Below are positions 7,218-35,977 of a DNA stretch of 39,044 nt, in pieces. The position numbers were made by a program, and so were the translations under genes. Source of the DNA: Ardenticatenales bacterium (GTDB lineage Bacteria; Chloroflexota; Anaerolineae; Epilineales; Epilineaceae); the NCBI GenBank assembly GCA_039931375.1, contig JBDTSC010000003.1, positions 1-39,044 of the forward strand, given 5' to 3'. The first letter of the stretch is position 1; the number at the start of each line of letters is the position of its first letter. Below the pieces are notes generated by a model. It did no database searches. It was not told where the DNA came from and saw nothing but the letters and a program-made list of their open reading frames with translations.

Positions 7218-9011
7218 ATGGAGTCACGAATGAGCAGTGTCAAGCGGATGCCGACCTCGCGCGTGCTCTCGGCGGTCGGCGCCAGCGCGCTCCTCATGGC
7301 CCTGGGCGTGCTCGGCGGGGTGGCGCTGCGCGGCCCGGCGAGCGCCCAGGACAGCGCCACGAGCCAGTGCGCCGCCGCGGTCGACAAGTGGGCGTCCCCG
7401 ACGGTCCTCGAGCTCGGCCAGACGACTCGCGTCACGCTGACGTTGACGTCCGCCTGCCCAGCGGAGGCGGCGCCGATCGATGTGATGATGGTGCTCGACG
7501 TGTCCGCCTCCATGGGCGACAACGGCAAGATCCAGAACGCGAAGGCGGCGGGCATCGCGTTCGTGAACGCGATGACGGACGGCTCACGTGTCGGCCTGGT
7601 CAAGTTCAACCAGGACGCCGGCGTCGCGGTCGCGTTGACGGAGGATCGCGCGCGCGTACGCACGGAGCTGGACGTGAACGCCACGAGCGGCCTCACCAAC
7701 GTGTCGCAGGCGATCTCCGTCGCCGCGGACCACCTGATCGCGGCGGGCCGGCCGAGCATCACCCACGCGATGATCGTACTGACGGACGGGAAGAACACCG
7801 TGCCAGCCGATCCGATCCCGGTCGCCGCCCAGCGGGCTAAGGACGTCGGGATCACGGTGGTTACGGTCTGCGCCGGCGGTGCGTGCGACCCGGACCTGCT
7901 GCCGGCCGCGAGCTCGAGCGCCCTGTATTTCAACGTGCCGAACCCCGCGGATCTCGTCGGCCTCTACACCTCCCTGGCCGGCCAGCTGCAGCAAAACGCG
8001 GTCGTTCAGCTCACCGTGCGCGACGTCGTGCCGGACAACATGCGCTACGTCGCCGGATCGGCGCAGCCCGCGGCGGACGAATCGATCGAGCCCGGATCCG
8101 GCCGCACGGTTTTGACGTGGCGCCTGGCCGGCGACATCCCGGCCCCCGGTCTGAGCTATCTGGTCGAACCGCTCGAACAGGGCGAGCACCCGACAAACGT
8201 GATCGCCACGGGTGACTTCGTGGACCGCAAGGGGCTGCGGGGCAGCGTGCTGTTCCCGGTGCCGAGCGTCATCGTGCCGGGCGGCTGCCCGCGCCGGCCG
8301 ATGGAGGTGTACTTCCTGATCGACGACAGCACGTGCCTCCTGGGCGCGTCGCTGTCCGGTCTCGACTCGAAGGAGGCGATCGCCCAAGGCGTGAGCCGCG
8401 TGCTCGACATGATGGACATGAATCAGGACACGGCGGCCGTCATCGGCTTCGGCAGCATCGCGACGATCTACCAGACGTTGACCCACGACCACGCCGCCGT
8501 CGTCGACGGCGTCCGGCGCGTGGCGATGCAGGACCAGGCGGCGCGGCTCGACCTCGGCTTCCAGGAGGTGCGCCGCGAGTTGGCCAGCAGCCGCTCCCGC
8601 CCGGACACGGTGAAGATCACGGTGTCGGTGACGGACGGACCGATGATGCCCTCGCCGCTCCGCGCGACCGAGCACGCCAAGAGCCTTCGCGCGAAGGGTT
8701 TCCACCATTACACGATCGGCATCGGGCCGATCGTCCAGCACGGCGTGCTGCGCGCCGTCGCCGAACCCGGCGGCTACCGCGCGCTGCCGCTCGGCGGCGA
8801 CGTGATCGGTGCGTACGTTTCCCTGGGCGGCATGTTCGTTCCGTTGGCGAACGTCTGCCCGCAGACGCCTGGCGTGCCGACGCTAACGCCCGTCATGCCG
8901 ACGCTCGCGCCCACGTCCACGAGCCCGCCGACGGCGGTGGCGCAGGCCACCACGCCGGCCGCGCCGGTGCGGCGCGCGTTCTTCCCGCTCGCGGAGCGCG
9001 GCGCGGAGTAG
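7218..9011 (+). CDS. Secreted double-vWA protein with DUF11-like domain, Pro/Thr linker and C-terminal AFFPLAER motif
   Basis: Signal peptide (...GPASA-Q). vWA1 has MIDAS DVSASM/T/LTDG, and vWA2 has degenerate DDSTC/VTDG. P/T-rich tail. An alternative start at 7230 has a GGAG SD. Confidence 0.88.
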   Translation: MESRMSSVKRMPTSRVLSAVGASALLMALGVLGGVALRGPASAQDSATSQCAAAVDKWASPTVLELGQTTRVTLTLTSACPAEAAPIDVMMVLDVSASMGDNGKIQNAKAAGIAFVNAMTDGSRVGLVKFNQDAGVAVALTEDRARVRTELDVNATSGLTNVSQAISVAADHLIAAGRPSITHAMIVLTDGKNTVPADPIPVAAQRAKDVGITVVTVCAGGACDPDLLPAASSSALYFNVPNPADLVGLYTSLAGQLQQNAVVQLTVRDVVPDNMRYVAGSAQPAADESIEPGSGRTVLTWRLAGDIPAPGLSYLVEPLEQGEHPTNVIATGDFVDRKGLRGSVLFPVPSVIVPGGCPRRPMEVYFLIDDSTCLLGASLSGLDSKEAIAQGVSRVLDMMDMNQDTAAVIGFGSIATIYQTLTHDHAAVVDGVRRVAMQDQAARLDLGFQEVRRELASSRSRPDTVKITVSVTDGPMMPSPLRATEHAKSLRAKGFHHYTIGIGPIVQHGVLRAVAEPGGYRALPLGGDVIGAYVSLGGMFVPLANVCPQTPGVPTLTPVMPTLAPTSTSPPTAVAQATTPAAPVRRAFFPLAERGAE

Positions 9012-12000
9012 TGGCCGGGCGCCGCGCCCTCGCCGCCGCCGCCGCGATCCTGATCGCGGCGGCGGCTCCGCGCCCCGCTGCCGGCCGCTCGGCCGCCCCG
9101 CCGACAATTGGCGGCTCGTACCGCCACGTCGCGACGTGGTCGAACGAGCCGTGGCAGCTGCGCGCCGGCTGGTTCGCCTACGCGATGGACATCGCCCACG
9201 GCCCGGACGGCGACCGGTGGGTATTGGACGCCGTCCAATCCGCCGTGCACCGCATCCGGTCGGACGGGCAGCCGCGTGCGGTGTGGCCGCTTGCCGCCGT
9301 GAGCGGCGGCGAAGGAGGCCCAGGCGACGTCGGCGCCGAGCAATGCATACCGCGCCGCCTTGCGGTGCGCCCGGCGGGGGATGGCGTGGCCGTGATGGCC
9401 ATTTGCACGGGCCAGAGCGGAACGCGCCGGACGGACGTAGCGCACTACGCGCCCGATGGTCGGCGAACGGGCGGGTTCAGCGTGCCCGTCGCGTATCGCG
9501 ATCTGGCCTTCTTGCGCGACGGGCGGCTCATCTTGGCGCGATCGGAGCCGCGCGTGCCGCCGACGCCGTCGCGCGTCGTCCCGTTCCGCGCGCCGGGCGG
9601 CCTCGATGTCTACACCCTGGACGGCGTGCACGCGGGCACGATCGAAGGGCCGGAGCTGGATCTCGCCATCGCGGTCGACGTCGCCCCGGACGGCACGGTG
9701 TACGTCGTGAACTGGCTGCCCTATCCGGGCGCACCGCCTGGCGCGCCCGAGCCGACCCCGCGTCCGTCCGGGATGCTGTCCGGGCTGCTGTCCGGAGTGC
9801 GATCCGGAATGCTGCCCGCGCGCACCCACGACGCGGTGCCGGTGGAGGGCGTCGTTCGATATGATGCGGCGCTGCGCTACCTGGACGCCACGCCGTTCGA
9901 CGGCGCGGACGATGTCGCGGCCGGGCGGAGCGTGTACGTCGCGCGTGCAGACGAGGTGTTCGAGCTCGGGCGCGCCGAGCCGATCTGGTCCGCACCGTCG
10001 GGCGCGCTGTACGTGCCCTATCGCCACCGCCTCCTCGCGCTGACGGTCGATTCGGAGGGCTCTCTTGCCGCCGCGCTCGATCATTGCTGGTTCCAGGGGA
10101 TCGTCGAGCTGGGCCCGGGGTCCGCCGACGGACCGATCGCCCTGCACGGCGAGCTGGATCGTCCTGCGCTCGCCGGGCCGTTCGCGCCGTTGCGCCTGGC
10201 CGCCGGCAGGACGCTTCGCGTGCTCGGCGCGCGCTTCCAGCCCCTGGACACGCCGGGCCGGGCGCCGGTGCGCATTGAAGCGAACGGGGAGGTGGCGCCG
10301 GAACCGCAGAGCATCGTTCAACTGCGCGCGGACGGCCGGCTGGTCGATCAGCGCGGCGTGTGCGGCGACGACCTCGCGTTCACCGAACCCGGCTCGACCG
10401 CGAACTGGGCGCGGGACGTAGCGTCCGTGGGGGACTGGGTGTTCGAGGGCGGTCCGGAGATCGTGACGGCGTGGCGCGCGGCGGATGACCGCCTGCCCGC
10501 CTGGCAGCTCTGGTTGGGCAGCGTGGCGGCGCCCGGCGGCGTTCCCGATGCCGGAGCGGACGCCGCCCGTCCGCGGCTGGCGGCGATCGACGCGCGGGAC
10601 GGACGGCTGGCGATCCTCGACCAAGGGCGGGGCCTCGTGATCCTCGTTCCGCTGACGGGCGCCCTCGCCGATCCGTCCGCCGCCGCGACCGCGTGGTCCG
10701 TCCGTTCCTTCGGCCGCGACGTTCCGACGGACCTGGCGATGGCGAACGACCAGGTCTATCTGGCGTACGGCGGGAGCCGCCGCGTCGTGGTCGCCTCGCT
10801 GGACGGCCGGCGAATCGATGCGTTCGACGTGGACGACGCGCCGCTGGCCATCGCGCCGGCCACCGTCGAGGGCGCGGCGGACGACGTGTTGATCCTCGGA
10901 CGGAACGGCTGGGGCCTGCGCTATGCGGATGGCGTCCTGGTGGCGCGCTGGCGCCTGCCGGCGCCGTTCGGCGCGACCGATATCAGCCCGCTGCCGGACG
11001 GCCGCGTGGGCGTCTCGTTCCTGCGCGGACCGCCCGTGGCGATCGACGATCCCGGCGCCGGACGAACGGTCGAGGAGGGCGGCGTCTGGGTCTTCGCGCC
11101 GGATGAAGCCGCGCCATCGCCCCACGTCCTTCCCGGCGCATGCCTTGTCGAACCGGACAAGTCCGCCGCGCCCGCGGAGGTGCGGCTGGGCGATCCGGTG
11201 ACGATCACACTCCGCGTCGCGGGCACCTGCCCGCCGGCACGCGACACGACCGACCTCGTGCTCGTCGTCGACACGTCGCGCTCGATGAGCTGGGAGGGCG
11301 CGCTCGACCGCGCGGCGTCGGCGGTCGTGGCCGTCCTCGGCGCGCTGAACGCGGCTGAGACGCGCGCCGCAGTCGTCGCGTACGCGGACGACGGGCTTGT
11401 CGTCGAACCTTGGACGAGCGACATCGGCGGCCTTGCGCAGCGCATCGCCGCGCTCTCGCCGCTCGGCGACACGCGGTTGGCGGGGGGGCTCGCGGCGGCC
11501 GATCAGGTGCTGCGCGACACCGATGGGCTTGCGGCGCGACAGGCGGTTCTCATCGTCACGGATGGTGAGCTGAAGGACTACCCGCAGGCCGTCGCGCGCT
11601 CTCTGGCGGATCGCAACGTCGCGCTGTACGCGCTCGCGATCCCGCGGAGCTCATACGACTACGGTCAGACCCGGGCGCTGGCCGGCCTCGTCGGCGCGGG
11701 ACACGTCTTCGTCGATCCGGACGCCGCGGCCGCCGCCCTGCTCGCCGCGACGCTCGCCGGCGAGCGTTCGAGCTCCGATCTGTTGGCCACGGCGATCGTC
11801 ACGGATACGCTGCCAGCAGACATGGCGTACCTGGACGGATCCGCCGTCCCGGACGCCGAGTACGATCCGCCGTCCCGTACGCTGCACTGGCGCATTCCGG
11901 CCGTTCCGCTTACCGCCACCTTGACGCTCCGCTACGCGGTCCGGCCGGCCGTCGTCGGGCTGCGGCCGACCAACGTCGCCGCCCGGTTGGTCGGCCGCGA

Positions 12001-12682
12001 CGGCGTCGGTCGTGACCAGGCGCTGATCTTTCCGGTGCCGTCCGTCAAAGTATGGGACCGCGCCTCGCTCGCGCACCGCGCCTACCTGCCGATCGCGATC
12101 CGCGGCGCGTGCGTCCGCCCGCCGGAGGCGGACATCGTCCTCGTCCTCGATGCGTCGAGCAGCATGGACGAGCCGGCCACGCCTCTGCCCGGGACGAAGC
12201 TGGACGCGGCCAAGGCCGCCGCGCTCACGTTCGCCGGCCGCCTTGGCGCGCACGGCGCGCGGGCGGGCCTCGTGTCCTTCGCGACGGACGCCGTCGTCGC
12301 GCTCGGCCTGACGACGGACGTCGCCGCGCTCGCGCGCGCGATGGACGCGATCACCACGGCCCCCGGCACGCGATTGGACCGTGGGCTGGCGACGGCGGAC
12401 GACCTGTTGACGCGCGGCCGGCGGCCCGGCGCTCGGACCGCGATCGTCCTCCTGACGGACGGCCGCGCCTCCGCGCCGGACGCCGACGTGCTCGCCGCCG
12501 CCGCGGCGCTCGGGGAGCACGGCACAACGATTGCCGCGATCGCTCTCGGTGCGGACGCGGATGTGGCGCTCCTAACGCGGGCGGCGGGTCCGGACGGCAT
12601 CGTCGTGCGCGCCGGGGACGCTGCGGAGGTGGCGGGCGCGTTCGAGGAGGTCTTCGAGCGGCTGCGCTGCCGGTCGAACTAG
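9011..12682 (+). CDS. Large secreted protein: beta-propeller-like region, DUF11-like domain with inserted vWA, and C-terminal vWA
   Basis: GTG overlaps the upstream TAG. Signal peptide MAGRRALAAAAAILIAAA. NHL-like blades (DIAHGPDG, DVAPDGTVYV, PTDLAMA). MIDAS DTSRSM and DASSSM. Internal RAYLPIAIR. Confidence 0.85.
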   Translation: MAGRRALAAAAAILIAAAAPRPAAGRSAAPPTIGGSYRHVATWSNEPWQLRAGWFAYAMDIAHGPDGDRWVLDAVQSAVHRIRSDGQPRAVWPLAAVSGGEGGPGDVGAEQCIPRRLAVRPAGDGVAVMAICTGQSGTRRTDVAHYAPDGRRTGGFSVPVAYRDLAFLRDGRLILARSEPRVPPTPSRVVPFRAPGGLDVYTLDGVHAGTIEGPELDLAIAVDVAPDGTVYVVNWLPYPGAPPGAPEPTPRPSGMLSGLLSGVRSGMLPARTHDAVPVEGVVRYDAALRYLDATPFDGADDVAAGRSVYVARADEVFELGRAEPIWSAPSGALYVPYRHRLLALTVDSEGSLAAALDHCWFQGIVELGPGSADGPIALHGELDRPALAGPFAPLRLAAGRTLRVLGARFQPLDTPGRAPVRIEANGEVAPEPQSIVQLRADGRLVDQRGVCGDDLAFTEPGSTANWARDVASVGDWVFEGGPEIVTAWRAADDRLPAWQLWLGSVAAPGGVPDAGADAARPRLAAIDARDGRLAILDQGRGLVILVPLTGALADPSAAATAWSVRSFGRDVPTDLAMANDQVYLAYGGSRRVVVASLDGRRIDAFDVDDAPLAIAPATVEGAADDVLILGRNGWGLRYADGVLVARWRLPAPFGATDISPLPDGRVGVSFLRGPPVAIDDPGAGRTVEEGGVWVFAPDEAAPSPHVLPGACLVEPDKSAAPAEVRLGDPVTITLRVAGTCPPARDTTDLVLVVDTSRSMSWEGALDRAASAVVAVLGALNAAETRAAVVAYADDGLVVEPWTSDIGGLAQRIAALSPLGDTRLAGGLAAADQVLRDTDGLAARQAVLIVTDGELKDYPQAVARSLADRNVALYALAIPRSSYDYGQTRALAGLVGAGHVFVDPDAAAAALLAATLAGERSSSDLLATAIVTDTLPADMAYLDGSAVPDAEYDPPSRTLHWRIPAVPLTATLTLRYAVRPAVVGLRPTNVAARLVGRDGVGRDQALIFPVPSVKVWDRASLAHRAYLPIAIRGACVRPPEADIVLVLDASSSMDEPATPLPGTKLDAAKAAALTFAGRLGAHGARAGLVSFATDAVVALGLTTDVAALARAMDAITTAPGTRLDRGLATADDLLTRGRRPGARTAIVLLTDGRASAPDADVLAAAAALGEHGTTIAAIALGADADVALLTRAAGPDGIVVRAGDAAEVAGAFEEVFERLRCRSN
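9767..9814. repeat. Degenerate tandem repeat, 4 x 12 bp (SGML/SGLL/SGVR/SGML)
   Basis: TCCGGGATGCTG TCCGGGCTGCTG TCCGGAGTGCGA TCCGGAATGCTG. Confidence 0.75.
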
Positions 12683-13398: not shown

Positions 13399-13463
13399 GG
13401 CTTCCAGCGGCGGCCGGCCGCCCCGCCGTGGAACGAGCTGCGGCGGGGCGTTGCGCGAGGCGC

Positions 13464-14132: not shown

Positions 14133-14249
14133 GCGATACTCCCTCGGGGTTCCCGACGATGCCGGCGCGTCGCCGCGAGCGGTCGATCCGCCGCCGACGT
14201 TCGCTTCGGTCGCACGGCATCGACGGGCGGTCGTAGCCCTCGATTGGTC

Positions 14250-15338
14250 TTAGCCCTCGATGTCGAGGGCGTCCTTGAGGTCCGTGATGTAGATGATGAC
14301 GTCCGCGGACCGGTGCTGCTCGGCCAGCCAATCCTGCACCCGCTTCTCGCGCAGCTTGAACCCGAGATCGGCGTCGATCTCGCGCGCCGGATCGACCTCG
14401 GTGACTTCGACGATGTGGTAGCCGTAGTCCGTCTTCACGACCGCCGAGCGCTGGCCCGCCTGCAGCCCGGCGATCACGGTCTGCAAGTCGGCGCTCGGGA
14501 GGTACGTAAAGCCCTTGATGATCGGCACCCAGCCAAGATCGCCCCCTTGCGCGGCGGACACCTCGTCCTTGGACACCGCCGCTGCCACGGCCGCAAAGTC
14601 CTCGCCGCCGTCAAGGCGAGCCAGGGCGGCCGTGCACTCCGCTTCCGTGGCGCACAGGATGTGCCGGGCGTGGTAGAACGGGGCCGCGGTCGGGAGATCG
14701 CGGCTGATGTCCTCCACGAACTTCCGGCCGACGATCGCCTGCCGCTCCATGGCGAACACGTCCGCGTCGCTCGCGCCGGCCTCGTTGCGCGCGGCGTCGA
14801 AGTCGGCGGTGCCGCCGGACTGCTCGCGGTAGCCGGCCAGGCTCGCCTCGACCTCCTGGTTCGTCGCCGTGATCCCCTTGCGGGCGGCTTCCTGTTCGAT
14901 GAGCGCCTGATTGATCATCTCGCTGAGCACCTGACGCCGCAGCGCGAGCAGCTGTCGCTGGCCGGCGTCCGTGTTCGGGTCGAGGCCCTTGTCCACGAAG
15001 TAGCGCTGCGTCTCCAGCGCTTGGCTCTGGAAGTCCGCGAGCGCGACCGGCTGGCCGTTCACGGAAGCGGCCAGTTCGGGGGACTCAGGCGCACCCGCCG
15101 GTGCGATCGGCGAACGATCCGCGTCGCCGGTGACGCCGCTCTTGACGGGCGCACCCGCCGCCGGATCCGTCGGCCCGCCCTCATCGCCCAAACTGGCGTG
15201 GCTTGCCGCGCTCTGGTCCGCGTCCGCGCCGCCATCCGTCGTCGAGCCTTTTGCGCATCCGGCGAAGACGCCCATCAGCAGCAGGGCGCAGCCGCCCGCC
15301 AGCCACCGTTCGCGCCGTCGCATCCAATCGACCTTCAT
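14250..15338 (-). CDS. PrsA/SurA-like parvulin peptidyl-prolyl isomerase lipoprotein
   Basis: Lipobox VFAG-C, SurA-N-like AASVNGQPV...LIEQEAARKGI, and parvulin motifs HARHILC, GEDFAAVA...SKD..SAAQGGDLGW, VKTDYGYHIVEV. Confidence 0.9.
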   Translation of the reverse strand: MKVDWMRRRERWLAGGCALLLMGVFAGCAKGSTTDGGADADQSAASHASLGDEGGPTDPAAGAPVKSGVTGDADRSPIAPAGAPESPELAASVNGQPVALADFQSQALETQRYFVDKGLDPNTDAGQRQLLALRRQVLSEMINQALIEQEAARKGITATNQEVEASLAGYREQSGGTADFDAARNEAGASDADVFAMERQAIVGRKFVEDISRDLPTAAPFYHARHILCATEAECTAALARLDGGEDFAAVAAAVSKDEVSAAQGGDLGWVPIIKGFTYLPSADLQTVIAGLQAGQRSAVVKTDYGYHIVEVTEVDPAREIDADLGFKLREKRVQDWLAEQHRSADVIIYITDLKDALDIEG

Positions 15339-15451
15339 CGTTCGCTCCGGTTGCAGTCCCGATCGCCGCCGACGCGGGGTCGGACGGCGGCCGCAGTATA
15401 TGCGGCGAGCGCCGCCAAGCAAGATGTGGGCCGTACGATGTGGACGCACCG

Positions 15452-17770
15452 CTACCCGTTGAGGTCCCCGTCCCCCTTCGCGCCCCGTCGACGCGCCGCG
15501 ATCCGTTCGCACAGGATTCGGCGGGCTGTCGCCGGCCAGGTCCGGCGGACGGCCAGCCACGCCGCCTCGAGCCGCTCGGACAATGCGTGCGAGGTGCGGC
15601 GGCCAAATCGCTCCGCGACGTACGCATCCGTGATCGCGGAAATTTCCGTGCCGGCGTCGGGAATTTGCTGCGCCAGGCGGCGGCTGTATTCGCTCGGGGT
15701 CTCGGAATGGCGCGGACCGACGCCCAGCCAGCGGGCGACCCGCACGAGCCGGCCGAACGAGCGCTCCGCCGCGCTCAGGCCTTCCATCGGACGCGCCCAC
15801 CAGAACCGGCCGGCCAACACGACACCGACGATGCCGAGCAGGGACGCCAGCCACGGCCAGAAGCGGCCGAGCCCGACGGCGACCGCAACGGTGTCCGCGC
15901 GCCGCGGCGGAACCTGATCGGCGGCGGGCGGCTTCACATCTTCCGGCGGCAGCGCGTCCTTTGGCGGTGCGGCGGACTGATCCGACGCGGGCGGCGGCTT
16001 GGCGGCCAGCGCCCGCGCGTCGTCGGCGGTGGACGGACGGTCGAGCGGCTGTTCGTTGGCCGTCGGCTCGAACTCGATCCAGCCGTAGCCCGGAAAGAAC
16101 ACCTCGGGCCAGGTGTGGGCGTCGTAGTCGTGCAGGCGGCGGCCCTGGACGCCGACGAGAGGTTCGCCGCCCGCATACCCGGCGGCGAGCCGAGTCGGAA
16201 CGCCCTGGCTGCGCGCCAGGACGACGAAGGCGGTGCTGTAGTAGTCGCAGTAGCCTTCCTTCGTGTCGAACAAGAACCAGTCCGCCTTGTCCCGGCCGCG
16301 CGGCGGATCGGCGATCGACTCCGTGTAGGTCATCTCGCGGCGTAGGTAGCCCTCGATCGCGTGCGCCTTGTCCCAGCGGGTTGTCGTGCCGCCGGCGATC
16401 GTCGCCGCCAGGTCCGTCACCCGCGCGGGCAGCGCTTCGGGCAGCTGGAGGTATCGCGCTGTCACCCACGCCGGGTCCCCACCGCGCTCCGCGCCGTCCA
16501 GCTCGCCGACGCTTGCCGCGCTGACGTTCGAGACGACCTCGTAGCCGCGGCCCTGCGATAGCGGCTGCCGGCTCTCGACCGTGAGCACGTCCCCCCCGTC
16601 ACCCGCCGTTTCCACGGACGTGTCGACGTCGAACCGGGCGGGAGAACCGAGGGCGTAGAGCTGGCTGATGTTGGGCTTGAGCGTCGTCACGGTCTGGGTG
16701 ATCGGCAGGACGGACTGCCATGGGCCGCCGATCGCGTCGTACGCCGCCGCGTTGTGTCGATCGTCCGCGTTGCGGCGCCAGCTCTGGCCGTCCCAGGTGT
16801 CGAACACTGCCATCCGGAAGTACCGCGCCGGCACGGCGGACTGCCCGCTCAGCGCGACGTCGAACACGGGCGCGTTGCCCAGCTGGATGCTGCCCGTCAG
16901 CGGCATGGCGTCGCCGAAACTGGTCCCTTCGCCGCGCACGGGGTAGTTGATGTTCGGAAAGTACCGCCCGGAAAGCGCCCGCGCGCGCGACGTCGCGGCC
17001 GACCAGGTGGTCGGCAGGTTGCGCAGGACCTCGCTCTGGATGCGGCCGGGGAGCACGAACGCGAACGCGATGGCCAAGCACGCCAGGACAAGGCTGTCGC
17101 GCAGGAAGTCGAACTCGAGGCCGGCGCTGTGGTGGACGCGCTCTGCCTGCCAGTGCTCCTTGCGCAGCGCCAGATGGGTCCGCGCCGCCAGCAGGAACGC
17201 GCACAGCATGAAGAAACCGACGTACGCCGAGTCGTTCGACAGGTGCGCCGAATACAGGCTGAACACGAGCGCGAAACCGCTGGGCAGCACGGCTCCCGAC
17301 CAACTGATGTAGCGGGCCGCGAACCATGTGCAGATGTACGCGAGCAGCCAGAGCAGGAGCGCCATCGTGATCGTGAAGAACAGCGCCATCATGTCTTGCT
17401 GGGCGTTCGACAGCGGCATCCCACTGCGGGCGACGGCGGGCCAGGCGAGGTATGTCGATCGCACGTACGCCAGTCGGTCGAGGAGCGACCACGCGCCGTA
17501 GTCGCTCGGGGTGCTCTCGTAGCCCGCCACCAGACCTGTCGCCAGGTAGAATGTGCACACCGTGCCGAGGACGGCGCTCCACCCATGGGCGATGAGCACC
17601 GGCATCCATCGCCACGACGAGAGCACGGCGCCGATCACCACGCCGCCGATCACGACCGGCGTGAGGATCGCGAGACCCGACACCCAGCCCGCGTTTTCGA
17701 TCGACCAGGCAAGGCACAGCTGCATGAGCCCGACCAGGACGATGCTAGTCCAACCCGATGGTGGTCGCAC
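15452..17770 (-). CDS. Membrane transglutaminase-like protein (TgpA-like, DUF3488/DUF4129-type architecture)
   Basis: N-terminal TM bundle, YFRMAVFDTWDGQSW, catalytic GYCDYYSTAF and HTWPEVFFPGYGWIEFEPT, then a C-terminal TM and SETPSEY...YVAERFG domain. Confidence 0.9.
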   Translation of the reverse strand: MRPPSGWTSIVLVGLMQLCLAWSIENAGWVSGLAILTPVVIGGVVIGAVLSSWRWMPVLIAHGWSAVLGTVCTFYLATGLVAGYESTPSDYGAWSLLDRLAYVRSTYLAWPAVARSGMPLSNAQQDMMALFFTITMALLLWLLAYICTWFAARYISWSGAVLPSGFALVFSLYSAHLSNDSAYVGFFMLCAFLLAARTHLALRKEHWQAERVHHSAGLEFDFLRDSLVLACLAIAFAFVLPGRIQSEVLRNLPTTWSAATSRARALSGRYFPNINYPVRGEGTSFGDAMPLTGSIQLGNAPVFDVALSGQSAVPARYFRMAVFDTWDGQSWRRNADDRHNAAAYDAIGGPWQSVLPITQTVTTLKPNISQLYALGSPARFDVDTSVETAGDGGDVLTVESRQPLSQGRGYEVVSNVSAASVGELDGAERGGDPAWVTARYLQLPEALPARVTDLAATIAGGTTTRWDKAHAIEGYLRREMTYTESIADPPRGRDKADWFLFDTKEGYCDYYSTAFVVLARSQGVPTRLAAGYAGGEPLVGVQGRRLHDYDAHTWPEVFFPGYGWIEFEPTANEQPLDRPSTADDARALAAKPPPASDQSAAPPKDALPPEDVKPPAADQVPPRRADTVAVAVGLGRFWPWLASLLGIVGVVLAGRFWWARPMEGLSAAERSFGRLVRVARWLGVGPRHSETPSEYSRRLAQQIPDAGTEISAITDAYVAERFGRRTSHALSERLEAAWLAVRRTWPATARRILCERIAARRRGAKGDGDLNG

Positions 17771-26500: not shown

Positions 26501-27380
26501 GCTTGGCGCGAAGGACGTGTCGATCACGCTGCCCGAGCTGACCGTGAGCGTGGACTGGACGACCGGCCAGGTCACGGGCAAGGCGCCCGCCACGACGATC
26601 GTGATGCGCGCGTTCCCGGCCGGCGGCTGCCTCAACCTCGGGCGCGGCGGCGTGCAGGCCGTGCGCAGCCAGGCGGACGGCACCTTCCAGTTCCCGCCGC
26701 TGCCGAACTTCCTGCGCGAACCGGGCGACGGCTTCGAGATCGGGATGTTCACGGCGGACGGCAACTACGTCTACAAGCACGCGTACCGCAACCAGGGCGA
26801 GGTATATGTCCACCACGATCGTGTCGCGGGGCGCGCGATCCCGGCCGCCGACGTGACCATCGTCGTGAAGGCCGCCGACGGCAGCGAGAAGGGCCGCGGG
26901 GTCGCGATCGCGGATGGCTCCGGGCAGTTCGACGTACGGGTGGTGGGCGCGGCCGGTGCGGTGAGCATCGAGCCGGGCGACACCGTGCACCTCGACGCCA
27001 GCGGCGACAGCGCCGACATCGCGGTGGACGAGCTCGACTTCGACTGGAGCCCCGGCGCCGCGAGTGCGATCCGCGGCACGACAACGCCCGACCGCCAGGT
27101 GCGCTTGTACCTGCGCCTGCGGAGCGGCCGGACGATCGCGTTCGACCGCGGCTCAGACACGAGCGGCGGCTTCGGCTTCGCGGCGGCAGACGTACCGCCG
27201 CGGGCGGACTGGTCGATGGGCGACGTCGTCGGCGTGCGGATCGAGACGGACACGGTGAACCGCCACATCCTCGTGGCGGAGGTCGGAGAGAGCGTCGGTC
27301 CGGTGCCGACGCCCACGCCGCCGCCCGCCACGGGCGTTGGCACGATCTACCTGCCGTTCGCCTACCGTTACAAGCGGTAG
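23538..27380 (+). CDS. Large secreted beta-sandwich repeat protein (S-layer/surface-protein candidate) with poly-Gly loops and C-terminal TIYLPFAYRYKR
   Basis: Signal peptide and about 7 repeats of 170-180 aa (IPDLS, VPDVK, VSDLT, VPELR, IPELS, LPELT, VDELD, each followed by ..V.G.A). G/T/V/A-rich, PTPTPPP linker, monocistronic with a strong terminator. Confidence 0.8.
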   Translation: MLPPTAKRASRTLLPALALALLGAAQAPWHAPTTPVKAMVQLQAPQPATAILAAMHDNALTWRTTPATAVTAQLREGTTVRGQGQPAVSDAQGNVRIQFFGGGGPGGGMGSRGAFINSGYTIALTPAGGQELTATIPDLSADIDIDGDKIVGKAPAGAMIDVVLNAGPGVTGAMTSTVTAAADGSFSASFGGVDLLPGNAGEAWFSGPDGNRYAARFAALEASVSIGARNVTGSATPGDRVNVRFSTGGASRGQAAVATVRPGTTWAVGGGGGGGGGGGGGGPNGLQALRVGDTVSVTVTSALTGGTRNMIGVVPDVKIDQVSQGERKVVGHAPAGTVLSIVAVSPYGDATAPATATAAGDGTFSATLSGTDPIGPGWRIQVSAQIVPGLSVLSVNAIDQVRVGVHTGVVSGVADPGVPVTVTLRSGAGVEKATQSDRSNNAGTFSLQFGGQNGIVVGDRVEVTFIDGDPIIIPVSDLTAMTDKVADTVSGSALAGSTVTVMYRQGGQNGQVTRRTAVANASGQYRVDFSGVLDLNDPMAGEVAVRLASGHELVTNWAAVRMTLQLNQSFVTGNGPAGRSAHVDLIDTPSGNVVASADSNIGGGGGGGFGQGGGGGGFGGNWFANLVDTTDQPVMVRAGDTLRATVGDDAFTLVVPELRGVAFVADDVINGETAPNRVVSIAVFRPLINGVNARAETTADNAGTFTYDFSGTFDLQHNDSLTFSVDESGHTINSQIFVPGLRLNLDTGVLAGSWHPTSNVAITVLSGGQTIFTGSAKTDIQALFTVTLADGSGAPLRLKQGDIVRVVPAGADASETLEMEIPELSVAFDEQAESVSGRATVGGHLELNVGDAIARPGGGGGPGGGGGGGQRNAEPTINADGTWTQTFQRPAYNVQPGTYAQAIYRVPIGHRVQMVRYVPILVAQQGGSHVCGLVGAPRDAVTSDLADAGGASLASAGGAAGYTSQFDFEWAKGGQTVNSAAGQVIKAKLGAKDVSITLPELTVSVDWTTGQVTGKAPATTIVMRAFPAGGCLNLGRGGVQAVRSQADGTFQFPPLPNFLREPGDGFEIGMFTADGNYVYKHAYRNQGEVYVHHDRVAGRAIPAADVTIVVKAADGSEKGRGVAIADGSGQFDVRVVGAAGAVSIEPGDTVHLDASGDSADIAVDELDFDWSPGAASAIRGTTTPDRQVRLYLRLRSGRTIAFDRGSDTSGGFGFAAADVPPRADWSMGDVVGVRIETDTVNRHILVAEVGESVGPVPTPTPPPATGVGTIYLPFAYRYKR

Positions 27381-27511: not shown

Positions 27512-28924
<1,413 letters not shown>

Positions 28925-29131: not shown

Positions 29132-29160
29132 TTGACCGCCTCATAACGCCAGCTTAACAT
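29132..29160 (+). promoter_or_regulatory. Putative phoX promoter with Pho-box-like 11-bp repeats
   Basis: TTGACC-17 nt-TAACAT. Hexamers TTGACC (29132), ATAACG (29143) and TTAACA (29154) are spaced exactly 11 bp apart. Confidence 0.55.
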
Positions 29161-29183
29161 GGGTCGCGGCGGCTCGCCGGTAC

Positions 29184-31163
29184 ATGCCGTCGCCGCGTAC
29201 CCATTGGACGTGCCCGTTGTCCGACGCCGAACCTCCAACGCAGGACACGCCTCCGCCAAGCCGCGCCGGCGTGGGCGAGACGTTCGACGCGATCGTCGCG
29301 CGCCGATGGTCGCGCCGCGCGTTCGTGCGCGACAGCCTGCTTGCCGGCCTGACGATCTACCTGCCGAGCGTGCACAAGAGCGGCATCGCCGACGCGGGCA
29401 GCCGGATGGCCTTCGGACACGTCGCGAGCACGCAAGGGGACGTCATGGCCGTCGCCGACGGGCATCGGCTGTCCGTGCTCCTGCGCTGGGGCGATCCGCT
29501 ATTTTCGGATGCGCCGCCGTTCGATCCATGGCGCCAGAGCGCCGGCGCGCAGGCGCGCCAGTTTGGTTACAACTGCGACTTCGTCGGGTATTTTCCGCTG
29601 CCCAGGCCGTCCGAAACGCCCGATCACGGCCTGTTGGTCGTAAACCACGAGTACACGAACCCCGAGCTGATGTTCCCCGGCTACCGCGACGGCGCGCCTA
29701 CGGCCGAACAGGTGGCGATCCAACAGGAGTGCGTCGGCCTCTCGATCGTCGAGGTCGTGCGTGGCAAGGGCGGCGACTGGCGGATCGTCCTCGACAGCCC
29801 GCTGAACCGGCGCATCTCGGCGACGACGTCATGCCAGATCAGTGGCCCCGCGGTGGGGCACACTCTGTTCCGCACGGCGGCCGATCCCGTCGGCCGGACC
29901 GTCCGCGGCACGCTGGCGAACTGCTCGGCCGGGCGCACGCCGTGGGGCACCGTGCTGTCGGCCGAGGAGAACTTCCAGGACGTGTTCGGCAACCGCGACA
30001 AGCTGCTCCCGGCGAGCGAAGACCTGGTCAACCACATGCGCGTCGGCGTCCCCGCCGGCCCGTCGCGCTTCGGCTGGGAACGACATGACCCGCGCTTCGA
30101 CGTCGAGCAGAACCCGCGCGAACCGTACCGCTTCGGCTGGGTCGTCGAAGTGGACCCGTACGATCCCACCTGGGTGCCCCGCAAGCGAACGGCGCTCGGG
30201 CGCATGCGGCGCGAGGCGGCGAATTCCGTCGTGAGCAAGGGCGGCCAGGTGGCCCTCTACTCGGGCGACGACACCGCGTTCGAGTACGTCTACAAGTTCG
30301 TGACGCGCGGCCGCTACGACCGGATCAACCGGATCGGCAACCGCGACCTATTGGACTACGGCACGCTGTTCGTGGCGCGATTCAACGCCGACGGCAGCGG
30401 CGCATGGCTGCCGCTGGTGTTCGGACAGGGGCCGCTCACGCGGCTGAACGGCTTCACCTCGCAAGCGGAGGTCTGCATCAACACGTTGCGGGCGGCCGAC
30501 CTGGTCGGCGCGACAAAGATGGATCGACCTGAGGACATCGAGATCGCGCTGGACGGCACGGTCTTCATCGCGCTCACCAAGAACGCCCAGCGCGGCGCGC
30601 CCGGCTTTGCGCGCCCGGACGCCGCGAACCCGCGCAGCCTGAACAAGCACGGCCACATCATCGAGCTGCACGAAGACGGCGGCGATCACGCGGGCCGCTC
30701 GTTCCGCTGGTCCCTGTTCATCGTGTGCGGTGAGCCGGGCGACCCGTCGACGTACTTCGCGGGATTCCCGGCCAACGGCGGGATCTCGCGCATCAGCTGC
30801 CCCGACAACCTGGCGTTCGACCACGCCGGCAACCTCTGGATCGCCACGGACGGACAACCGGACGCGTTCGGCATCAACGACGGCCTGTTCGGCGTGCCGG
30901 TCGACGGGCCCGAGCGCGGCCGCGTGCGGCGATTCTTCAGCTCCGTCGCCGGCTCCGAGGTGACGGGTCATTCGTTCACGCCGAACGACGGGACGCTGTT
31001 CCTGAGCATCCAGCACCCCGGTGAAGGCAGTTCAATGGCCGCGCCTTCGAGCGTGTTTCCTGACGGCGTCTCCCCGCCCCGCCCGTCCGTCGTGGCGATC
31101 GAGCACGTCCTCGGCCTGCCGATCGGCTCGGCTCCGCCGCCGGCGCCGGCCGTCGGCGGCTAG
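29184..31163 (+). CDS. phoX: PhoX-family alkaline phosphatase, Tat-exported
   Basis: SRRAF twin-arginine motif, FGYNCDF, VNHEY, NCSAGRTPWGTVLSAEEN, MDRPED, CPDNL, SEVTG and IQHPGE. Start uncertain. Confidence 0.93.
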   Translation: MPSPRTHWTCPLSDAEPPTQDTPPPSRAGVGETFDAIVARRWSRRAFVRDSLLAGLTIYLPSVHKSGIADAGSRMAFGHVASTQGDVMAVADGHRLSVLLRWGDPLFSDAPPFDPWRQSAGAQARQFGYNCDFVGYFPLPRPSETPDHGLLVVNHEYTNPELMFPGYRDGAPTAEQVAIQQECVGLSIVEVVRGKGGDWRIVLDSPLNRRISATTSCQISGPAVGHTLFRTAADPVGRTVRGTLANCSAGRTPWGTVLSAEENFQDVFGNRDKLLPASEDLVNHMRVGVPAGPSRFGWERHDPRFDVEQNPREPYRFGWVVEVDPYDPTWVPRKRTALGRMRREAANSVVSKGGQVALYSGDDTAFEYVYKFVTRGRYDRINRIGNRDLLDYGTLFVARFNADGSGAWLPLVFGQGPLTRLNGFTSQAEVCINTLRAADLVGATKMDRPEDIEIALDGTVFIALTKNAQRGAPGFARPDAANPRSLNKHGHIIELHEDGGDHAGRSFRWSLFIVCGEPGDPSTYFAGFPANGGISRISCPDNLAFDHAGNLWIATDGQPDAFGINDGLFGVPVDGPERGRVRRFFSSVAGSEVTGHSFTPNDGTLFLSIQHPGEGSSMAAPSSVFPDGVSPPRPSVVAIEHVLGLPIGSAPPPAPAVGG

Positions 31164-31197
31164 GAGTCCGACGCCAAGGCCGCTAGAATCGCCGGCC

Positions 31198-31755: not shown

Positions 31756-31833
31756 CCCGTCCTGGCATACGACGCGCGATGCGTCGTCGCCCGATGGCTG
31801 TCCCGCACGCCGACGGCGCCAACGCATCAGCGC

Positions 31834-32763
31834 ATGCCGATGATGGACAGCCACCTGCGCGACGCGCGCGTGATCATGGAGGCGACGCCGCCGCTCCGAA
31901 AGCACGAGGACAAGGCGTTCGCGATCCTCGAGCACTGCCTGCGCGCCTACACCCGGTTCGACGCTCTGTCCGTCCCCGACATCCAGGACGATGGCGAGTT
32001 CAACCGCAACGTGCAGCGGGTAAGCAACCTCGAGTTCGCGCGCTGGCTGCAATCGCAGGCCGCCAAGCCGTTGAGTCTGTATCGGGTCAGCGTCGCCACG
32101 GAGCGCGCGCCGTTTGAGGCTTGGCTGGATGAGGCCGAGGCGATGGGCGTCCACGACGTCGTGCTCGTGGGCGGCGACGCCTCCCAGAAGCAGTACGGTC
32201 CGAGCGCCCTCGACGTCGCCTCGGCGGCCGTCATCGCCCGTGAGCGCGGCTTCCACTGCGGCGGCATCATCATCCCGACCCGGCGGCGCGAGTTCGTGCC
32301 CCGCCCGGCCAGCCACGACGAGCTGGCGCGATTGCAGCAGAAAATCGCCACATCCAACCTCGAGTTCTACACGACGCAGCTGTTGTACGAGGGCGAGTGG
32401 ATGAGCTGTCTGCTCCTGGACATGGTCCGGACGATCCCGCTGGACCAGTTCCCGAAAATCTTCCTGACCTTTTCACCCTTCGTGGGAGAGGACGACCTCA
32501 ACTTCGCGCTCCGCGCCCTGGGCGTCTACGTGCCGCACGACGTCGAGCGCACGCTGCGGGGCGCGCGGAGCATGGTCGAGGCCTCCATCGCCCAGCTCAC
32601 GCTGGTCTGGGAGCGGTTGTCGACCTTCGCCAGCGAGATCGGCATCCCGGCCGACCGGCTTGGGATCAACGTCGAATATCTCAATTCCCGCAACCCACGC
32701 AACGTGCGGGCGGCCTTCGAGCTGGCCGAGGAGTTTGGGCGGATGATGGGGATCGAGGGGTAG
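31834..32763 (+). CDS. Methylenetetrahydrofolate reductase-like protein, resembling the mycobacterial type
   Basis: N-terminal IMEATPP, VLVGG, GIIIPTR..E..RL..K, FYTTQLLY and PKIFLTF recall MTHFR TIM-barrel motifs, especially the IPTR/TQLLY of mycobacterial-type enzymes (recognised from memory, not searched). Confidence 0.65.
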   Translation: MPMMDSHLRDARVIMEATPPLRKHEDKAFAILEHCLRAYTRFDALSVPDIQDDGEFNRNVQRVSNLEFARWLQSQAAKPLSLYRVSVATERAPFEAWLDEAEAMGVHDVVLVGGDASQKQYGPSALDVASAAVIARERGFHCGGIIIPTRRREFVPRPASHDELARLQQKIATSNLEFYTTQLLYEGEWMSCLLLDMVRTIPLDQFPKIFLTFSPFVGEDDLNFALRALGVYVPHDVERTLRGARSMVEASIAQLTLVWERLSTFASEIGIPADRLGINVEYLNSRNPRNVRAAFELAEEFGRMMGIEG

Positions 32764-32791
32764 GGAGCGGGGCGACGCCCGCCTCGATCCG

Positions 32792-35700
32792 TTAGCGCCG
32801 CCGCGCGTACGTCGCGAGGAACGGCAGGCTGATCGTACAGCGTCCGGTCGGGCCGCAGCGGCTCACCGGCGTCCCGGCCGTCGGCGTGGCCTGGGGAGTC
32901 CCTTCCGTCGACGACGCGCTAGCCCGTGGATCTGGCGTCGGTTCGAGCGTTCCCGTCCGCGTCGCGCTCGGCGTTGCGTTGGGGGTGACCGATGGCGTCG
33001 TCACGGGCGTTTCCGTCGCCGTGGCGTCCACATCGATCGTGGGGCTCGGCGTGGACGATGCGGTCGGGGTGTCGGTCGGCGTCAGCGTCGGCGCCGCGGT
33101 GGGGATGAACGGCGTCGGCGTCGCGGTCGGGATGATCGCCTCGTCGTAGACGGCGGCGCCGTTGCGCAGAGTGCCCAACCACACGGACGGACCGCCCGCG
33201 TCGATGGACGAGATCTGGTTCGAACCGAGCGCGCTGTCGTCGGGACCGATGCGGTACCACGCGGCGCCGACCAGCAGCTTCACGCCGCCGATCGGCGGCA
33301 CGACGCCCCGATGGTAGCGATGGGTGCCGACCCATAGCCGCCCGAGCGCATCGACGTCCAGCGCGCTCACGAGCCCATCGCCCAGAAAGCGTTTGCCGGT
33401 CCAATCCTTGGCCCGGCACGTCTCCAGCGGGCAGGCGTCCAGTTGGGCGTGCACGTTCTCACCCCGCGGCCAGTGGAACGTGCTGCCGATCGTCGCCCAG
33501 CCGCCGGCCCAGACGCGATCGCGCCCGCGATCGATCGTCACCGCGTTGTAGACACCGTAGTCGCCGAAGGTGGCCATCGTCGAGCCGCTGTCCTTCTTGG
33601 TCCACGACTTCCAGCGCGTGCCGTCCCAGCGCGCGACGCCGCCGCCGGCCACGACGATCTGCTCCGGCTGGCCCGGGCCGATCGACACCTTGCGTTCGAC
33701 CGGATAGTGCGCCGTCCAGACGTAGCCGTTCACCGGATCGACCGCCAGGTCGGCGACGCCGTTGCCGGCGTTGAAGTCCGCCGTCACCTGGTGAGTGCGC
33801 CATGTCCCGGATGCCGGGTCGAGCACCGCAAGGCCGAAGCCCGTCGCGACCAGGTTGCCCACGGCGATCCAGACCTTGCCCGTCGAATCCGCTTCGATGG
33901 CGACCGCCTCACGGTACGCCAGCGGGCTGTTGCTCGGGTCGTACACGCGCCAGCGCCCGTCGACGAGTCCGGATGCGCCGCCGTCCTGCCAGCAGTCCGG
34001 GTAGCGGTCGCAGGTCGGCGGCGTCCCGGTCCGCTGGTACAGCCGGTCGTTGCGCAGCGCCGACACCCACGGCTCGGAGCCGTTGCGCAGCGCGATCTGG
34101 GTCGCGTGGTCGCCCGCGGGACCGCGCACGAGCCGCACCACGCCCGCGCCTGCGGCGACATCGGCGTCGAGCGGCGGCGCGAGCGTCAGCATCCCGTTCT
34201 GGCCGTCGCCGTTCGCGCTGAACGCGGTCACGCGATGGATCGTCGCATCGTCGCCGATCCGGACGATCGGCTCGCCGTCCGGGAAGCGCAGGTCGAACGC
34301 GGCCTGGGACGCGATGTCGACGACGACCCGATTGGCCCCGTCGACGCCGTCCACGACCGTGACGGCCACACGCCCGGCGTCCTGGTACGCGCCCCACCAC
34401 GTCCACTGGTCCCCGTCGTGCAGCCAGCGCGCGACGCCGCGGTTCTTCAGCGCGAACCACGTCGCGCCGCCGGCCGCGTCGTCCGCGATGTCGGCGATCT
34501 GGTTGGAGGGCAGGCCGTGGTCCGCCGTGCGCAGGTTGCGCCAATCGTACCGCCCCGTCGCGGACGGGTTCGGCGCGCCGAGCAAAAGCCCGTCGCCGTC
34601 GCCGTTTTGGTCGTCGATCGTGCCGACCACGAGGCCGTTCGAGACGTCGATCGCCGACGCGAGGCGGTCGCGCACGGCGGTCGGACCGAGGGTCAGCGAC
34701 GTGTACAAGTCGTCCGAATTGAAGGCGATCGGGGAGCCGGGCGAATCGTCGTAGGTGCCCTTCGGGTCGAGGATCGAAAGGCCCAGGCCGGCGTCCGTTC
34801 CCTCGCCCTGGCTGACGAAGATGCGACCGCCGCCCGGTTCGACGGCCACCGCGCGCACGACGTTGCCGAGCAGGCCTGGGTTGACCGGGTCGGGCCGACC
34901 GCGGGGCTTGATGTAGTACGCCTGGCCGCTCGAACACGACCAGCCTTGCGAAAACCCGCGCATGAGCAGGACGCCGTGTCCTTGCGTGCCCGCCCAAAGG
35001 CGTTCGTCCGCGTCCGCCGCGAGCGATGTGATCGTTCGGTCGTAGCACGAGGTGTCCGTCTCGCTCGTCGGATACCAGCGCCGCCACGTCTCGCCTTGTA
35101 GCGCCGCCAGCCCGCCGCCCACGAGGATCCAGTAGTCCGAGCGGCTGAGGCAGTCGCTGTCATGGCAGTCCGTGGCGTCCCAGGCGTAGTACGGCCGCGT
35201 CCCGACCCACAGCGTGCCCGCCGAGTCGAGGGCGAGGGCCGTCACGTTGTCGCTCGGCAGCGTGCGAAACTTGTGGTCGCCGCTCGCCTCGCCGGGCACG
35301 AAGACGATCTCGGCCACCGCGGACATCGACCATGTGTTGCGCGACGGGTCGAAGCGGGCCACACCGCCCGGCCGAAACGCGCCGTGCACGCTGCCGTCCG
35401 AGGACGCCGGGTGCACCCGGTCCGCGTCCCATTCCTGGCTGAAGCCGACCCACAACGTGCCGTCCGCCAGCGGCGCTATCGCCGTCACGACCCGCGCCGG
35501 CATGCCCGGCGACGTCGAGGGCGTCACGACCTGCCACTGGTCGCGCTCGGGAACGAACCGCGCGAGCCCCCGTCCGGTCGCCGCCCAGACGCCGCCGCCG
35601 ACGGCCGGGGCCACGTCGTACACCGTATTGTCGGGCAGCGGCGACTGCGGGTGCAGGTATTGGGTGTACGTGCCGGCCGAGATCGACCATCGAACCAGCC

Positions 35701-35977
35701 CGCCGGCCTGGGCGGCCACCCACAGCGTGTCGCCGTCGCGATAGATGCGCTTGACCCGATCGCCGTTCGCGACGCTGTGCCAGCTGCCGGCCAGCGCCGG
35801 CGGCGGATCGACCGCCAGGCGTCTGCTCGGCGCGCCGGCCACCCGTGCCTCGCGTACGGTGGCCGCGATCGCCAGCAGCGTCAACGCGACGCCGATCACC
35901 CGCCGCGCGCGCGGCGGGCGGGGTGCGATGGGCGTTGCGGCGGACGACCCGCCGAGCGGAACACGATCGAACATCAC
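32792..35977 (-). CDS. Large secreted beta-propeller (two-component-regulator-propeller-like repeats) protein with Pro/Thr linker and C-terminal TISLPFLATYARRR
   Basis: Signal-like hydrophobic segment, repeated LPxNxV..L..D..G.LW.GT blades, long PT/TP linker. GTGA overlap with the upstream GT gene. Confidence 0.85.
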   Translation of the reverse strand: MMFDRVPLGGSSAATPIAPRPPRARRVIGVALTLLAIAATVREARVAGAPSRRLAVDPPPALAGSWHSVANGDRVKRIYRDGDTLWVAAQAGGLVRWSISAGTYTQYLHPQSPLPDNTVYDVAPAVGGGVWAATGRGLARFVPERDQWQVVTPSTSPGMPARVVTAIAPLADGTLWVGFSQEWDADRVHPASSDGSVHGAFRPGGVARFDPSRNTWSMSAVAEIVFVPGEASGDHKFRTLPSDNVTALALDSAGTLWVGTRPYYAWDATDCHDSDCLSRSDYWILVGGGLAALQGETWRRWYPTSETDTSCYDRTITSLAADADERLWAGTQGHGVLLMRGFSQGWSCSSGQAYYIKPRGRPDPVNPGLLGNVVRAVAVEPGGGRIFVSQGEGTDAGLGLSILDPKGTYDDSPGSPIAFNSDDLYTSLTLGPTAVRDRLASAIDVSNGLVVGTIDDQNGDGDGLLLGAPNPSATGRYDWRNLRTADHGLPSNQIADIADDAAGGATWFALKNRGVARWLHDGDQWTWWGAYQDAGRVAVTVVDGVDGANRVVVDIASQAAFDLRFPDGEPIVRIGDDATIHRVTAFSANGDGQNGMLTLAPPLDADVAAGAGVVRLVRGPAGDHATQIALRNGSEPWVSALRNDRLYQRTGTPPTCDRYPDCWQDGGASGLVDGRWRVYDPSNSPLAYREAVAIEADSTGKVWIAVGNLVATGFGLAVLDPASGTWRTHQVTADFNAGNGVADLAVDPVNGYVWTAHYPVERKVSIGPGQPEQIVVAGGGVARWDGTRWKSWTKKDSGSTMATFGDYGVYNAVTIDRGRDRVWAGGWATIGSTFHWPRGENVHAQLDACPLETCRAKDWTGKRFLGDGLVSALDVDALGRLWVGTHRYHRGVVPPIGGVKLLVGAAWYRIGPDDSALGSNQISSIDAGGPSVWLGTLRNGAAVYDEAIIPTATPTPFIPTAAPTLTPTDTPTASSTPSPTIDVDATATETPVTTPSVTPNATPSATRTGTLEPTPDPRASASSTEGTPQATPTAGTPVSRCGPTGRCTISLPFLATYARRR

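Follow-up and report, generated by a model that had tools for sequence, protein, structure and literature searches.

Five proteins with little else in common, encoded on one contig of an Ardenticatenales bacterium (Chloroflexota; Anaerolineae; Epilineaceae), share a short peptide built around the residues Tyr-Leu-Pro (YLP), which raises the question of whether they carry copies of one and the same signal and, if so, what such a signal would do at the cell surface. The window, that is, the whole stretch of DNA that was analysed (39,044 nucleotides), is an entire 39-kb contig of an assembly of 4.0 Mb in 521 contigs, with a GC content of 71% and rated 85% complete. An earlier note on this DNA had proposed the peptides as a candidate tag for surface sorting or anchoring. 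It has now been shown that the five window peptides all represent a single tag under selection at the peptide level, which in this Anaerolineae family has spread to about 190 large exported proteins. The motif is already known at the annotation level as a putative sorting signal; its expansion at family level, its degenerate consensus and its conserved use after signal peptides and before C-terminal von Willebrand factor A (vWA) domains are new.

Genes were called with a simple codon-usage caller, which leaves the starts of the open reading frames (ORFs) uncertain; it returned 2312 ORFs, with a stop codon present in 2096. The tag was described by a matrix of 13 columns, trained iteratively on the genome's own tails and used with a cut-off score of at least 14, and by a profile of 16 columns (A1), built from 44 sites of the lineage. 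All five peptides named in the earlier note are found in the translations of the window, at the places given here. The first gene, P0001 (7218..9011, + strand), encodes an exported protein with an N-terminal hydrophobic stretch, two vWA domains (Pfam VWA, E 1e-29) and a Pro/Thr linker, and ends in a degenerate YLP-type tail, RRAFFPLAER (8970..8999, +), followed by about four residues and the stop codon (9009-9011); its matrix score is weak (8.3) because FFP stands in place of YLP. The next gene, P0002 (9020..12682, +), combines a propeller-like region, a vWA domain, a DUF11-like piece, an internal tag and a C-terminal vWA domain; its ORF is open from 8333 and, at 8333-12682, overlaps the preceding gene, and the true start is probably near 9020. 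The internal copy, HRAYLPIAIR (12074..12103, +; matrix score 16.5, A1 14.8 bits), lies 2 residues upstream of the Cys with which the C-terminal vWA module begins, and the tag-plus-vWA unit as a whole (12035..12679, +; alignment A2) consists of the tag, this Cys, an intact DxSxS motif of the metal-ion-dependent adhesion site (MIDAS) and a terminal Cys.

The strongest copy of the window is the tail TIYLPFAYRYKR (27342..27377, with the stop codon to 27380, +; A1 17.6 bits, E 0.022) of P0003 (23535..27380, +), a 1281-aa repeat protein with Gly runs and a short Pro/Thr linker. In the PhoX alkaline phosphatase (29184..31163, +; Pfam PhoX, E 1e-149) the copy TIYLPSVHKS (29352..29381, +; matrix score 18.1) is N-terminal, and its role is ambiguous since it lies within the hydrophobic part of a Tat-like signal (RRAFVRDSLLAGLTIYLPSV). 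On the opposite strand, the Reg_prop/beta-propeller protein P0005 (32792..35977, -) ends, after a Pro/Thr linker of about 110 aa, in the tail TISLPFLATYARRR (32795..32836, with the stop codon from 32792, -; matrix score 16.9), where Ser replaces Tyr. The YLP core is thus present in the copies of P0002, P0003 and PhoX, with SLP in P0005 and FFP in P0001, and three copies are C-terminal, one is internal (P0002) and one is N-terminal (PhoX). Each of the three C-terminal copies comes after a Pro/Thr-rich stretch and has just 7-10 residues after the Pro, which leaves no room for a transmembrane (TM) helix, and this bears out what had been said of their context. As for P0003 itself, several pure Gly runs (of up to 13 G) separate its repeated Ig-like units, its one Pfam match (Big_6) is below the threshold, and its paralogues are numerous in the genome and the family, with 14 matches in its own genome.

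Beyond the window, the matrix detected 189 sites in 188 of the 2312 ORFs (8.1%), with a single site in 187 of these 188. At a score of at least 14, 107 sites lie within 15 residues of the stop codon and 74 elsewhere, compared with 0 and 3 in the shuffled proteome, and a few of the internal matches fall in ordinary enzymes by chance, consistent with the shuffle expectation. By class, 107 sites are C-terminal, 17 N-terminal and about 65 internal, and the C-terminal ones leave 5-19 residues (median 8) after the Pro. The consensus of the matrix is G/R-G/R-G-R-[IV]-[YFW]-L-P-[WVFAI]-[ALVG]-x-[RK]-[GR], and its core can be written as [IV]-[YFW]-L-P-[aromatic/aliphatic]-[small]-x-[RK], position -4 being usually basic; among 116 sites, L (111/116) and P (115/116) are near-invariant. 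In the last 20 residues of the proteins, YLP is enriched 9.1-fold (67 occurrences in tails, 182 in bodies) and LPW 10.8-fold. The codons of the core vary synonymously and no conservation extends past the stop codon, therefore selection has acted on the peptide and not on the DNA. With regard to codon choice, the Leu of the tag is encoded by CTC in 4 of 104 cases, compared with 35% in the genome as a whole, and the 101 C-tagged genes for which stop codons were tallied end in TAG (50), TGA (48) or TAA (3).

Conservation in orthologues was observed for all five carriers, although for P0005 in only part of the homologues. In P0001, a tail of an aromatic or aliphatic residue, an aliphatic residue and Pro, placed after a Pro/Thr linker, is present in all seven orthologues found (for example RFIPWAEKP and ILLPLILRTRALR), and the same-genus orthologue of P0002 retains RRAYLPIGFVGAC, with RRAYLPI before the Cys. 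Eight family orthologues of P0003, about 40-70% identical, differ in their linkers and yet all have [IV][YF][LM]P tails, and GLTIYLP is retained in both genus-mate PhoX genes that were examined. For P0005, 12 full-length family homologues were compared: an x-LP-x-[LV]..R tail is seen in 6 besides the window's own, whereas 5 of the 12 end in a propeller repeat, without the tag. These results bear directly on the possibility that the whole pattern arose by accident, from biased composition or from a DNA repeat that happens to be translated. Proteins rich in Pro, Thr and Ala abound in this genome of 71% GC, searches with short profiles yield between one and six "hits" in most genomes, and the 20 best profile matches inspected in low-count genomes are mostly spurious frames or one conserved segment, all of which would speak for such an origin. 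Nevertheless, no terminal site was found in the shuffles against 107 observed, orthologues at 40-70% identity retain the tag as the linkers change, and the synonymous codon variation and unconserved downstream DNA rule out a translated repeat for the window's genome. An accidental origin of the pattern is therefore exceedingly improbable.

The proteins that carry the tag are, as proposed, otherwise unrelated and exported. C-tagged ORFs are long, with a median of 766 aa against 365 aa, and signal-peptide-like N-termini, judged by a hydrophobicity heuristic that excluded ORFs beginning at a contig end, occur in 57 of 85 C-tagged and in 558 of 1809 untagged ORFs. Likewise, 54 of 107 C-tagged ORFs, compared with 41 of 1901, are rich in Pro/Thr over the 40 residues upstream, so the expected association of the tag with both signal peptides and Pro/Thr linkers has been found. 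A domain scan covering 28 of the 188 tagged proteins (those lying fully inside the retrieved loci) returned S8 peptidases (subtilases), vWA, NHL/LVIVD propellers, DUF11, PA, beta-helix, FG-GAP, Laminin_G, C25 and Ig-like domains. Among the NCBIfam relatives of the tagged proteins are LPXTG-anchored peptidases, M36 peptidases dependent on myxosortase, rhombosortase or the type IX secretion system (T9SS), a PEP-CTERM protein and a choice-of-anchor Q domain. Since the relatives of this cargo use anchor signals elsewhere, the tag occupies the place that an anchor signal has in other lineages.

The flexible position suggested by the five window copies is also seen genome-wide, where the tag is found at the ends of Pro/Thr stalks or at domain boundaries. 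Three placements recur: at the C-terminus, just after a signal peptide, and 2 residues upstream of a C-terminal vWA domain bounded by Cys. In the N-terminal class, about 15 copies stand between a hydrophobic signal and a Pro/Thr linker. Of about 64 internal copies, 33 lie directly upstream of a Cys and the DxSxS start of a vWA domain, approximately 185-230 residues from the end of the protein. An alignment of 27 paralogous modules (A2) revealed no variation in the L and P of the tag, in the MIDAS residues or in the terminal Cys, and hardly any in the first Cys, at a mean column identity of 39%. The module is numerous in the window's genome (47 copies) and in a genus mate (46), and it is present in 0-5 copies in 59 other genomes of the class. 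A tag-Cys-vWA module was also seen in one genome of another family of the class, with a GC content of 51%. In these modules (window 12035-12679 and 26 paralogues) one Cys stands 7 residues after the Pro of the tag and a second near the end (...IPC or ...LPC), a spacing that suggests a disulfide clasp. The tripeptide IPC is 28-fold enriched in tails.

In an AlphaFold2 model of the P0002 module, the vWA part reached pLDDT values of 96-98, whereas the blocks within residues 1-30, which contain the tag, had values of 62-65; a tag segment that lacks regular structure beside a confident vWA fold fits an exposed linear peptide. The same model places the tag undocked from its own vWA domain, and the vWA domain as a receptor in cis was therefore set aside. 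Co-folding of the vWA domain (A2 residues 25-215) with the P0003 tail (A3) gave a score of 0.00, which is uninformative either way. The placement at domain boundaries, with 33 of about 64 internal sites before a vWA domain and further interdomain sites in two genomes of other families, could also be expected of a site for maturation or cleavage between modules, which would release the vWA domain or trim the terminus without any part in anchoring. Such a role is improbable, given that cutting at the 107 C-terminal copies would remove just 5-19 residues and that a single site per protein, together with the anchor-like placement in homologous families, fits sorting better.

Two NCBIfam models, NF050076.1 ("sort_motif_YLP", 11 positions) and NF053834.1 ("ultrashort_CTERM", 10 positions), whose shared description is "YLP-box putative sorting motif-containing protein", have already catalogued this motif, and the curators at NCBI have thus independently arrived at the same reading as the earlier note. 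The statement in that note that no mechanism was established for such tails still stands, although the motif itself was not new. The literature search, conducted at abstract level, returned no publication on the YLP-box motif, and Table S1 of one source could list further signals (10.1101/2023.06.07.544157); Pfam has no model for the tails. The canonical form and the motif of this lineage are alike in the placement of an R-[VI]-Y-L-P-[LF]-[VI]-[VLF]-R core at the ends of exported Chloroflexota proteins, the Y-L-P core being followed here too by about three hydrophobic or small residues and a basic residue, and profile A1 connects the window copies to the canonical form. They differ in that positions +1 to +3 are relaxed in the lineage (W/F/Y/A/G), in that up to 19 residues follow the Pro, and in the conserved copies after signal peptides and before vWA domains.

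When 70-residue tail pieces were scanned with these models at a permissive threshold, 8 of 9 out-group tails matched, 6 above the cut-off of NF053834 and 2 above that of NF050076. Neither model matched the five window copies at E<=10 in pieces of 30-89 aa, or at E<=0.01 in whole proteins, a miss that is no strong evidence, as the HMMER filters discard many weak short matches. In a six-frame search of the window's genome, NF053834 gave 9 matches and NF050076 gave 16, of which 3 were above the cut-off; in the corresponding controls the models matched in 10-11 of 14 unrelated genomes, so their cut-offs are meaningful only on called proteins. Taken as they are, the NCBIfam models recover less than one tenth of the approximately 189 sites found with the lineage profile.

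The occurrence of similar tails in other Chloroflexota was substantiated by scans with the lineage profile and matrix. In the window's own genome A1 yields 140 matches at E<=10 and 132 at E<=1; at the latter threshold, three genus mates have 89-99, nine other genera of the family 27-79, and eight genomes from four sister families of the order 4-17. The named relatives are metagenome-assembled genomes of Candidatus Epilinea brevis, Ardenticatenales, Anaerolineales and Anaerolineae. Across the phylum, 400 sampled Chloroflexota genomes were surveyed with A1 by scoring at most 23 candidates in each, and most had 0-6 matches, with few outliers; five unpublished genomes are included in this tally and in that of sortases described below, the latter containing one more, and no individual claim depends on any of these. 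Five outlier genomes searched in full had 14-35 matches, and their canonical form, R-[VI]-Y-L-P-[LF]-[VI]-[VLF]-R, lies 0-2 residues from the stop codon. Among the matrix matches of five out-group genomes, 19 of 27 are at most 11 residues from the stop codon, with tails scoring 18-24. N-terminal, interdomain and pre-vWA copies were found in other families too.

Low counts (one to six per genome) are mostly noise. Inspection of the 20 best matches in low-count genomes revealed only about five real tags, one of them doubtful; four of the remainder are one and the same internal segment of a 920-963-aa protein, and the others are short, Arg-rich, spurious frames. With so few genuine matches, the use of few-target genomes as a route to a processing gene was abandoned. 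The segment of the 920-963-aa protein, EERR[VA]YLPLV[VL]RA, is internal, 124 residues from the end and without a linker, is conserved in four other Chloroflexota genomes, one match in each, and is probably an unrelated look-alike that inflates the counts obtained with short profiles.

To our knowledge, no general route for sorting or anchoring surface proteins in Chloroflexota has been described beyond sortase and lipoproteins. With LPXTG signals the tag shares the C-terminal position, the L-P pair, the location after wall-spanning Pro/Thr regions and the basic end; it differs in having no TG, no TM helix and no spacer, as T is found at +2 in 11 of 116 sites and G at +3 in 13 of 116. The genome encodes three sortases and, separately, at least six proteins with LPxTG, a TM helix and a basic tail, on contigs that include five other than the window, in agreement with the claim that the tag is not an LPXTG signal. 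Among 135 ORFs with a TM-like C-terminal segment, the matrix matched two, neither of them at a C-terminal tag. Sortase genes are present in 280 of 401 sampled Chloroflexota, comprising all clearly tag-rich genomes and also most tag-poor ones, and for this reason their distribution says nothing about partnership. As the three enzymes have canonical substrates of their own and their spread over the phylum does not track tag counts, sortase is not favoured as the partner of the tag. Nothing telling was seen among the genes around the three sortases. Elsewhere in the genome, a 966-aa ORF has a PEP-CTERM-like tail (VPEAG, a TM segment and RQRK), so that, with the LPxTG tails, several sorting signals operate in parallel beside the tag.

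The tripartite CTERM signals consist of a signature, a TM helix and an Arg cluster (10.1101/2023.06.07.544157), a design to which the tag does not conform since its hydrophobic part spans about three residues. The absence of a TM-length hydrophobic segment with an Arg cluster also separates the tag from PEP-CTERM, as had been argued. What it has in common with PEP-CTERM/exosortase, GlyGly-CTERM/rhombosortase, PGF-CTERM/archaeosortase and MYXO-CTERM/myxosortase is the order of signature, hydrophobic and basic residues, the large number of targets per genome, the single signal per protein and the overlapping cargo families; unlike in these systems, the tag is also N-terminal and internal, the hydrophobic run is limited to 3 residues, and no cognate multi-TM protease was identified. 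Folded modules offer an analogy of another kind. SLH domains, dockerin-cohesin pairs and the T9SS C-terminal domain are folded and have 50-100 residues; they resemble the tag as a common module placed after linkers on many unrelated exoproteins, and they differ in that the tag is a linear peptide of 8-10 residues.

These comparisons raise the possibility of an ultrashort sorting signal of the Haft type, processed by an enzyme, in which a dedicated peptidase or transpeptidase would cut at or after YLP and link the protein covalently to the wall, a lipid or a glycan; the few residues or the entire vWA domain downstream of the tag would be the leaving group. This is the main rival of the docking peptide described below, and it is considered rather unlikely, if still deserving of serious attention. 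The near-invariance of L and P, the closeness to the stop codon of the 19 out-group sites, the sortase-type signals used by the same cargo families elsewhere and the NCBIfam names "ultrashort_CTERM" and "putative sorting motif" would all be expected of such a signal, and a signature with three hydrophobic residues and a basic one could be viewed as a compressed form of the tripartite design (10.1101/2023.06.07.544157). The same tag, however, has no TM segment that would hold a precursor at the membrane, having just 5-19 residues after the Pro, and its conserved copies straight after signal peptides leave nothing upstream to attach. In addition, no candidate enzyme was found, with the sortase distribution uninformative and the three sortases already provided with their own LPxTG substrates.

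The reading that we favour, tentatively and at somewhat less than even confidence, is that the tag would be a non-covalent docking peptide for a common envelope component. In this scheme, a tagged protein would be exported by Sec or Tat; the tag, located where an extended Pro/Thr stalk comes closest to the wall, would serve for attachment; being exposed and linear, it would be bound non-covalently by a common envelope component, either a receptor or a protein of a surface layer or sheath; and many unrelated enzymes and adhesins would in this way be kept on the cell surface without a TM helix. Docking is preferred because N-terminal and internal copies are conserved, no TM segment is present and the tag is predicted to be unstructured beside the vWA fold; the independence of position favours it over C-terminal transpeptidation. 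A broader version, in which one receptor or surface layer would hold about 190 exoproteins through an 8-residue peptide at either end of the stalk, as a TM-less, position-independent display by short linear motifs, with about 40 tag-vWA modules adding a metal-dependent layer that cross-links the surface proteome, is more speculative and rather doubtful.

The tag might instead bind a non-protein component of the envelope directly, such as the membrane interface, an anionic wall polymer or a sheath polysaccharide, with no receptor involved. The basic residues (R/K) at -4 and +4 around a core of I/V, Y/F/W, L, P and W/F/V, the occurrence at either end of proteins and the failure to find a partner gene would be compatible with this, whereas eight residues would be expected to bind only weakly (an estimate, not a computed value) and the strict L-P pair is hard to reconcile with bulk physico-chemistry; direct binding thus appears quite improbable.

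Several observations weigh against the docking peptide. No partner was identified, and in the neighbourhood of tagged genes only sigma factors of the extracytoplasmic function (ECF) type were enriched. The canonical out-group form, at 0-2 residues from the C-terminus, looks like a shrunken signal of signature, hydrophobic and basic parts, and in this extreme position a signal processed by an enzyme fits as well as docking. A near-invariant Pro is also commoner in enzyme recognition sites (LPXTG, PEP, PGF) than in beta-strand addition. Within the window, the tail of P0001 is weak and, judging from its place in the sequence, the PhoX copy may be a mere part of the Tat signal. Finally, the gene set comes from a simple caller applied to an 85%-complete assembly in 521 contigs, and the signal-peptide heuristic is crude, with uncertain starts and one third of the tagged ORFs failing it.

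A tag present in about 8% of the genes would define the surface proteome of an Anaerolineae lineage of the activated-sludge type, including proteases, a phosphatase, adhesin-like vWA proteins and propellers. Where the motif has diverged, as in this lineage, the curated YLP-box models underestimate it about ten-fold, and its use away from the C-terminus constrains any mechanism that may be proposed. Moreover, the genomes of this family represent a rich training set in the search for a partner, by phylogenetic profiling or by peptide-protein docking.

The gene neighbourhood was analysed by grouping the 2312 ORFs into families by all-against-all BLAST and by counting the families found within two genes of tagged genes (68 families). 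The only enriched untagged family was that of the ECF-type sigma-70 factors, with 11 of 19 members beside tagged genes against a baseline of 15.8% (binomial p 3e-5), as exemplified on seven contigs. As the sole enriched neighbours are ECF sigma factors, regulation is indicated rather than machinery, and many of the tagged proteins may be ECF-regulated.

The window contains further genes near the tagged ones. Five are related to the envelope, namely a Peptidase_C39_2-TPR protein (1329-3149, +), Lgt (4194-5048, +), a DUF6541 multi-TM protein (5115-7211, +) that lies immediately upstream of P0001, a SurA_N/PpiC rotamase (14250-15450, -) and a TgpA-like membrane transglutaminase (15452-17770, -). 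At the other end, a 904-aa ORF without a Pfam match (35974-38688, -) overlaps the start of P0005 by 4 bases, which makes co-transcription of the pair probable. A second recurrent C-terminal ending, ...NP.RR.L.LRN....YHP..N.....CGC plus one residue, was also observed in approximately 5-12 otherwise different proteins of the genome, with examples on nine contigs; its sequence suggests a small C-terminal domain of its own, containing Cys.

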